Below, piece after piece: positions 6,842-7,093 of a stretch of DNA of 64,000 bases. The position numbers and the translations under genes are program-made. Numbering within the stretch: the first letter of the stretch is position 1; the number at the start of each line of letters is the position of its first letter. Source of the DNA: Escherichia coli (GTDB lineage Bacteria; Pseudomonadota; Gammaproteobacteria; Enterobacterales; Enterobacteriaceae); assembly GCF_030013595.1 (NCBI RefSeq), contig NZ_CP122768.1, one strand, 5' to 3'. The notes beneath the pieces are model-generated. The model was not told where the DNA came from. It was given only the letters and a program-made list of their open reading frames with translations, and searched no databases.

Positions 6842-7093
6842 TTAATGCCTGTTTTCTTGTGGGCTGTGAATACCGGATTTTTTCAGCGTCTCAATATGTC
6901 GGCGCAGATCGGAGATCAAAGTCTCAGTCATTTCGGGAGTAAGCGCGAAGAACTGAGTTTCTTGTGCTGAATCCAGTGGTTGCATAGGGGAAGTCAGGTA
7001 CTGGAATTTTAATGCTAGCGCACCATAACCGGGCAATGGTCCAGCCTGCCAGGCTGTAATAGGAAAAACAGGAATATCGTTTTTTTGTGACAT
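6842..7093 (-). CDS. Hypothetical protein (leftward gene between cro and rha)
   Basis: 83-aa ORF with strong AAGGAGG ribosome-binding site 6 nt upstream of the ATG; followed by a bidirectional hairpin at about 6781..6809. Confidence 0.5.
   Translation of the reverse strand: MSQKNDIPVFPITAWQAGPLPGYGALALKFQYLTSPMQPLDSAQETQFFALTPEMTETLISDLRRHIETLKKSGIHSPQENRH

Follow-up and report, generated by a model that had tools for sequence, protein, structure and literature searches.

A lambdoid prophage lies within the 64,000 nucleotides of Escherichia coli DNA that were analysed here (the window), and between its cro and rha genes is a short open reading frame (ORF) that points leftward, against the early-right operon. 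A preliminary description, made from the sequence alone, had presented it as a well-expressed-looking gene with an unrecognised product, separated from cro by a bidirectional hairpin and located where phage lambda has cII. In lambda, cII encodes a helix-turn-helix (HTH) DNA-binding protein and is transcribed rightward after cro. The locus therefore raises the question of what the leftward gene encodes, and whether it serves the phage, its repressor switch or the host.

The leftward ORF and its neighbours

The 83-aa ORF was found exactly where it had been placed, with an ATG start and on the minus strand, opposite to both cro and rha (Table 1). The strong AAGGAGG ribosome-binding site that had been claimed for it was located as well. 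The 64-kb window has a single match to the pattern AAGGAGG-N6-ATG, where 0.09 would be expected, and at least one match was seen in 9 of 100 shuffled sequences. In a codon comparison with homologues of 60–80% identity, dN/dS of the leftward gene was 0.07–0.20, indicating purifying selection on the 83-aa protein. PGAP annotates a BssS-family gene in 12 complete E. coli genomes, and the window protein is identical to WP_063102809.1 of strain ETEC1734. By the Pfam match (next section), dN/dS and PGAP annotation, the leftward ORF is a genuine gene and not a chance ORF. The leftward cro-rha gene of the preliminary description is thus real and independently organised, with a strong Shine-Dalgarno sequence and a terminator of its own.

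Table 1. Features of the cro-rha region, in window coordinates
Feature	Position	Strand	Basis or remark
CII-like HTH gene, left of cI	5147..5566	-	phrog_4836
cI-type S24 (LexA-like) repressor gene, 230 aa	5703..6395	-	same strand as the BssS gene; divergent from cro
cro-like gene (YdaS/Cro-like HTH), left flank	6515..6757	+	domain and phrog matches, RefSeq
Whole insert, 457 bp	6754..7210		relative to related prophages with a direct cro-rha overlap
Exchanged segment (BssS or 97-aa cargo): CDS and terminator	6755..7090		junctions at the cro stop and the cargo start codon
Intrinsic-terminator-like hairpin of the leftward transcript	6775..6813	-	stem 6813..6785, then TTTCTCTACG
BssS-family CDS, 83 aa	6842..7093	-	ATG start; Pfam, RefSeq, dN/dS, AlphaFold
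Leader/promoter region, 117 bp	7094..7210	-	96-99% identity with prophages carrying the 97-aa cargo
Shine-Dalgarno sequence AAGGAGG	7106..7100	-	6-nt spacer before the ATG
Candidate promoter, TTGGTG (7161..7156), 17-nt spacer, TATCTT (7138..7133)	7161..7133	-	7/12, by inference
rha/Ant-like regulator (Phage_pRha; phrog_63, anti-repressor Ant), right flank	7213..7920	+	

The rha gene has its own AAGGAG Shine-Dalgarno sequence, which is created at the edge of the cassette described below. The putative -10 element of PR (TAATAT, 6487..6492), between cI and cro, lies inside a perfect 8-bp inverted repeat, CCTATTGA-N10-TCAATAGG (6479-6504), which is likely to be an operator.

Two further observations concern the prophage as a whole. 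A 1.3-kb IS3-family element (9922-11228; orfA 10851..11177 and orfB 9964..10854, both on the minus strand) breaks the gene for a DnaC-like helicase loader relative to ETEC1734, with 100% identity on either side. The present prophage copy is probably replication-defective, and the window stems from another strain than ETEC1734. RefSeq annotates the counterpart of a 365-aa minus-strand ORF (14242-15339) as 'porin OmpC' in ETEC1734, where it directly follows the Q antiterminator gene; this ORF adds another accessory gene in opposite orientation to the prophage.

Assignment to the BssS family

The description of the product as unrecognised was mistaken, because an identical protein bears the RefSeq/PGAP name 'bssS family protein'. 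The product scores 56.1 bits (E 4e-15) with Pfam PF13991 (BssS), twice the gathering cut-off of 27, and residues 10-79 align with profile positions 1-70 of 72, i.e. over the full length. The window protein belongs to phrog_10846, which K-12 BssS matches too. Alignments also revealed the family features, namely a single small domain of about 80–85 aa, an N-terminal P-x-x-G-W and the frequent C-terminal (R/K)H. An exhaustive profile search yielded 139 representative clusters, mostly of about 75–90 aa; some calls were fused or extended at the N terminus, and two hits to long repeat proteins were spurious. Relatives were present in 4 of 50,697 phage records and in 5 plasmid records.

PDB sequence and profile searches with the window protein returned no relative. 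In the literature no papers were found on 'BssS family', PF13991 or COMM together with BssS, and a match for BssS and prophage in the AcrIIA22 literature was a false lead that refers to the nickase Nb.BssSI. Homology to a phage regulator of established role, which the preliminary description had named as the finding that would speak against it, did not emerge, because BssS is a host 'biofilm regulator' without a known mechanism (to our knowledge, it has been cited as such for 20 years with no mechanism given).

Comparison with K-12 BssS

K-12 BssS (84 aa) and the window protein are colinear from end to end and have PF13991, the N-terminal P-x-x-G-W and a C-terminal R-H in common, at an identity of about 22–24% in alignments. 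Default BLASTP of the window protein against K-12 BssS produced no alignment. Without composition correction, K-12 BssS aligned at about 26% to P0011, P0014 and P0004, which are close relatives of the window protein, itself absent from the subjects of that search. In the orthologue test for BssS (NCBIfam equivalog NF008958), the window protein scored 23.7 bits against a cut-off of 125, which by this measure makes it a distant paralogue, not an orthologue, of E. coli K-12 bssS/yceP.

Both genes are monocistronic, each with its own leader and its own hairpin terminator, but their settings differ. K-12 bssS is chromosomal, between dinI and solA, whereas the window copy is prophage-borne and antisense within a phage operon; the window copy is also rare (12 of 5426 genomes). 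K-12 bssS (L003:4702-5488) follows dinI immediately and in the same orientation, with a hairpin terminator of its own, and could be an old phage-derived insertion.

Deletion of yceP in K-12 increased biofilm through lower indole. Cold, heat and oxidative stress all induce yceP, and in mice it plays a part in colonisation resistance of the gut (PMC3646849, PMC1899176). Transfer of the biofilm/indole phenotype to the window protein by analogy is weak, because of the low identity and the equivalog score far below its cut-off.

A cassette with three states at the cro-rha junction

The distribution of the ORF in related prophages, which had been proposed as a check, showed that the gene is present, replaced or absent at the cro-rha junction. 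A BssS-family gene occupies the junction in the window, ETEC1734 and cq9. In E423, EHEC O103:H2 12009 and FDAARGOS_944, a 97-aa phrog_4753 gene fills the slot. The slot is empty in strain 'numer 3', where cro overlaps rha and 6754..7210 is missing. ETEC1734 matches the window at 100% across 6300..8000, and in cq9 the cassette lies behind a different cI/cro pair. The window and E423 are homologous as far as the cro stop codon (6754) and again from the cargo start codon (7091), so that the exchanged piece is exactly the coding sequence plus terminator, while the leader with the ribosome-binding site is common to both.

The leader was found in 86 of 5426 complete E. coli genomes and the BssS cargo in only 12, all of them from pigs or cattle. 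Each of the three leader-bearing genomes without BssS that were inspected had the 97-aa phrog_4753 gene. This cargo (L005:3432-3725, minus strand; L061:2210-2503; L062:2210-2503) has no Pfam or PADLOC match and is the commoner occupant of the slot, behind an identical leader and ribosome-binding site, with about 74 of the 86 leader genomes being without BssS. In further leader carriers without BssS (O111, O121, O45, APEC), the cargo is annotated only as 'hypothetical protein'.

Presence or absence between homologous phages, with sharp intergenic junctions ('numer 3', E423), is the behaviour of a moron. A distinct base composition was not found (G+C 0.44 in the cassette vs 0.46 in the surrounding 4000-9800). 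The three junction states identify a moron-type cassette, i.e. a self-contained and swappable accessory unit beside the repressor switch, which is dispensable because empty variants exist. Phage morons and lysogeny genes beside cI (lambda rexAB, lom/bor type) are likewise autonomous units with their own terminator, present or absent among phages, adjacent to the immunity region and of anti-lytic orientation. Unlike typical morons, the window cassette has a candidate promoter only, ordinary G+C and, which is unusual, an exchangeable cargo behind a fixed leader. The identity of the product as a BssS-family protein and the cassette nature of the unit are close to certain.

Terminator and leader

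The hairpin between the leftward gene and cro, which had been described as bidirectional and placed at 6781..6809, is present 27–28 nt from each of the two stop codons, with its stem at 6785..6813 on the minus strand. Bidirectionality is unsupported, because the consensus terminator scan called the minus strand only (a 12-pair stem, then TTTCTCT), and on the plus strand a bulge takes the place of the G-U pairs of the minus-strand stem, and AGAAAUUAUG, which lacks a U-run, comes after it. Fold z-scores were modest (-1.7 minus, -1.2 plus). The hairpin looks like a terminator that ends the leftward transcript and lets rightward PR transcription pass, and such a one-way terminator would fit the related phages in which cro overlaps rha and no terminator lies between them. 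A conserved stem, AAAGCGYC...GGCGCTTT, also follows homologues that lie in other settings. The terminator stem AAAGCGCC...GGCGCTTT travels with the gene and shows a compensatory change from GCGCC/GGCGC to GCACC/GGTGC. A minus-strand hairpin with a T-tract, conserved with the gene elsewhere, is a terminator of the kind that a moron carries for itself.

For the leftward promoter, a sigma-70 scan found no site at the threshold of 9/12, a result that carries little weight because this threshold also misses the PR candidate read by hand (TTGAAT-17-TAATAT, 6464..6492, 8/12). The diverged leader of locus L046 keeps the spacing of the candidate TTGGTG-17-TATCTT. Inverted repeats at 7153..7142 and 7106..7096 would permit pairing with the Shine-Dalgarno region if transcription starts upstream of 7155, and could sequester it. 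The leader folds at -18.8 kcal/mol (z -2.8), and the L046 leader gave z -3.3. An Rfam search of 6300-7400 returned no match.

A second leader type was observed at loci L013-L045, 70-40 nt upstream of the start codon. It consists of a block GCCTG/GCCGGG...CAGGC/CCCGGC, an overlapping ACCAC...GTGGT, then TGGTATCC, and then an inverted repeat that abuts the Shine-Dalgarno sequence and covaries (CCTTAC/GTAAGG or TCTTGG/CCAAGA). Stems with compensatory changes overlap the candidate -10 element and start site; in the MAFFT alignment of these leaders, the 3' arms were out of register. The leader of K-12 bssS (L003:4990-5045, minus strand) contains TGGTATACT, then CTGAAG-ttg-CTTCAG, and shares with the second type a motif, TGGTAT(C/A)C, that precedes an inverted repeat. 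We considered that the leader repeats may represent either RNA structure (an RNA thermometer or a 5' stabiliser hairpin) or a DNA operator.

On the plus strand, a weak terminator-like hairpin with a 5-bp stem (GAACC-TCCTTT-GGTTC, 7097-7112, then TTTTGTTTAT) lies antisense to the leftward ribosome-binding site and on the path of PR transcription toward rha. Hairpins of this type were not above chance in the region (2 found vs 1.0 expected).

Placement of the family at phage immunity modules

A pattern scan of IMG/VR yielded 42 loci whose encoded proteins were 58–99% identical, and a cI-like repressor gene was present within 2.6 kb at 41 of them. The window arrangement (cI, cro, then an antisense BssS gene) was found at six loci. 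At 33, as in Salmonella phage F1055, the BssS gene lies upstream of and convergent with the cI-like gene; where neighbours were identified among these, early-left genes (e.g. RdgC) lie beyond it on the opposite strand.

The distant members, with about 30–35% identity, were found in similar surroundings. Those of L054/55 lie directly downstream of an S24 cI gene on the same strand, those of L056-58 are antisense between a Cro-like gene and the replication operon, and those of L050 and L051 are beside CP76-type cII genes. In Pseudomonas phage PseuP_224 a distant member is directly upstream of cI, and in 'Synechococcus' phage Ssp-JY37 one is near cro. Where neighbours were checked, BssS-family genes were not co-oriented with the flanking lytic genes. 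In F1055, a 190-aa ORF ends 9 nt upstream of the BssS homologue on the same strand (L002:4419-4991), and a convergent gene for a 61-aa ClpX-type zinc-finger protein lies between the homologue and cI (L002:5328-5513).

Predicted fold

Structure prediction, also proposed as a check, gave a confident AlphaFold2 model (pLDDT 86.6; 115-sequence alignment) with strands at residues 12-20, 25-32 and 49-51 and a helix at 53-72, i.e. a beta-beta-beta-alpha order. K-12 BssS, which was modelled separately, showed the same order of elements (pLDDT 82.7). The predicted topology is superposable on solved COMM domains (Foldseek E 0.31), and Foldseek searches against PDB and BFVD gave nothing significant. COMM similarity at the level of sequence or profile was not found, with no PF07258 match in Pfam at E<=1 and none in the PDB profile searches. 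The COMM-domain proteins (COMMD1-10 and the bacterial COMMD-like proteins) differ in having a helical N-terminal domain, which is missing from the window protein. BssS and phages go unmentioned in a recent paper on prokaryotic COMMD-like proteins (PMC13392464). The likeness is a resemblance of predicted fold and not family membership, and it suggests a dimerising or oligomerising adaptor; from a COMM-like fold, the protein would probably dimerise or oligomerise and act by way of protein-protein contacts.

Proposed role and alternatives

The interpretation that we favour, with slightly better than even confidence, is that the gene is a lambdoid prophage moron which is expressed leftward in the lysogen and encodes a BssS-family protein that modulates host physiology. 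The cassette is made up of a leader/promoter region, a strong ribosome-binding site, the BssS gene and a rho-independent terminator, and is inserted antisense in the early-right operon. Its own promoter would drive leftward transcription while PR is repressed, i.e. in the lysogen, and after induction convergent transcription from PR would dampen the leftward transcript. The product, a small cytoplasmic beta3-alpha protein with a predicted COMM-domain-like fold, may act on host physiology in the manner of chromosomal BssS, through stress-responsive modulation of biofilm, indole and signalling. The result would be a conversion phenotype of the lysogen and not an aid to phage growth. By analogy with the chromosomal protein, we infer a host-physiology role for the window protein; the steady proximity to cI across very different phages would suit a switch-related role equally well.

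A broader proposal, which we put forward tentatively and at well below even confidence, is that BssS is at origin a temperate-phage family with a COMM-like fold and its home in the cI/cro module, and that chromosomal bssS is a domesticated moron. Its members would be small oligomeric adaptors of lysogeny with a possible influence on induction or on the stability of the repressor; effects on biofilm would be secondary.

It is rather unlikely that the protein is an accessory to the lysis-lysogeny switch that tunes induction. In one version it could modulate the RecA-dependent self-cleavage of the S24 repressor, or a Rha/Ant-type anti-repressor. The distance from a family member to a cI-type repressor gene is nearly always no more than about 1 kb, over many immunity types, and in some phages the member is the immediate neighbour of cI, on one side or the other and on the same strand; chromosomal bssS adjoins dinI, which encodes a RecA modulator, and the window gene abuts rha. 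However, near-identical prophages are empty or carry unrelated cargo in the slot, so that the switch can do without the gene. The 83-aa protein showed no DNA-binding motif, and no LexA box (CTG-N10-CAG) was seen by eye in the window leader.

A gene for superinfection exclusion or anti-phage defence, of the rexAB or sieB type, is improbable. The position is typical of protective genes expressed in lysogeny, and presence or absence with exchange of cargo is as expected of a defence hotspot. Nevertheless, PADLOC models gave 0 families at E<=1 for the window protein, the 97-aa alternative cargo and K-12 BssS. The product is a single soluble protein of 83 aa in which no enzymatic domain is recognised, and the related chromosomal gene belongs to the core genome and is induced by stress.

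Less probable again is that the leftward transcription itself matters, as a brake on read-through from PR into rha and the replication genes, and that the ORF is incidental. Lambda oop and P22 sar are the analogues for such an antisense brake. One leader drives two unrelated cargos at a single site, the unit is antisense inside the early-right operon, and the leader can fold to pair with the Shine-Dalgarno sequence. Against this stand the strong purifying selection on the protein, and the conservation of protein and terminator in contexts where no operon runs opposite to them. The lambda cII/oop region resembles the window gene in its place just right of cro and in leftward transcription that converges on cro. 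The window gene differs from that region in encoding a conserved protein that related phages can do without, and in yielding neither an HTH activator nor a small RNA.

That the gene is the positional and functional equivalent of lambda cII is scarcely credible, since position after cro is its only point in favour, whereas the gene is on the opposite strand, its product belongs to the BssS family and matches no HTH in a Pfam search, a CII-like regulator is already encoded left of cI (Table 1) and related phages do without the gene; a lambda CII-type activator is ruled out by the family assignment and the empty variants.

Significance

The moron reading leaves the gene an ordinary type, a rare prophage-borne addition to an already known family, and only the link of this family to phage immunity regions and its COMM-like fold are mildly novel. 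The annotation is settled: the gene is a BssS-family accessory gene, neither an unidentified regulator nor a substitute for cII. For BssS itself, the results provide several handles, namely the repeated occurrence of its relatives as cargo beside the repressor switch in temperate phages from enterobacteria and Pseudomonas, a slot whose leader serves another cargo, and a predicted COMM-like fold. These observations suggest that there are lysogens which carry a second, phage-controlled BssS.
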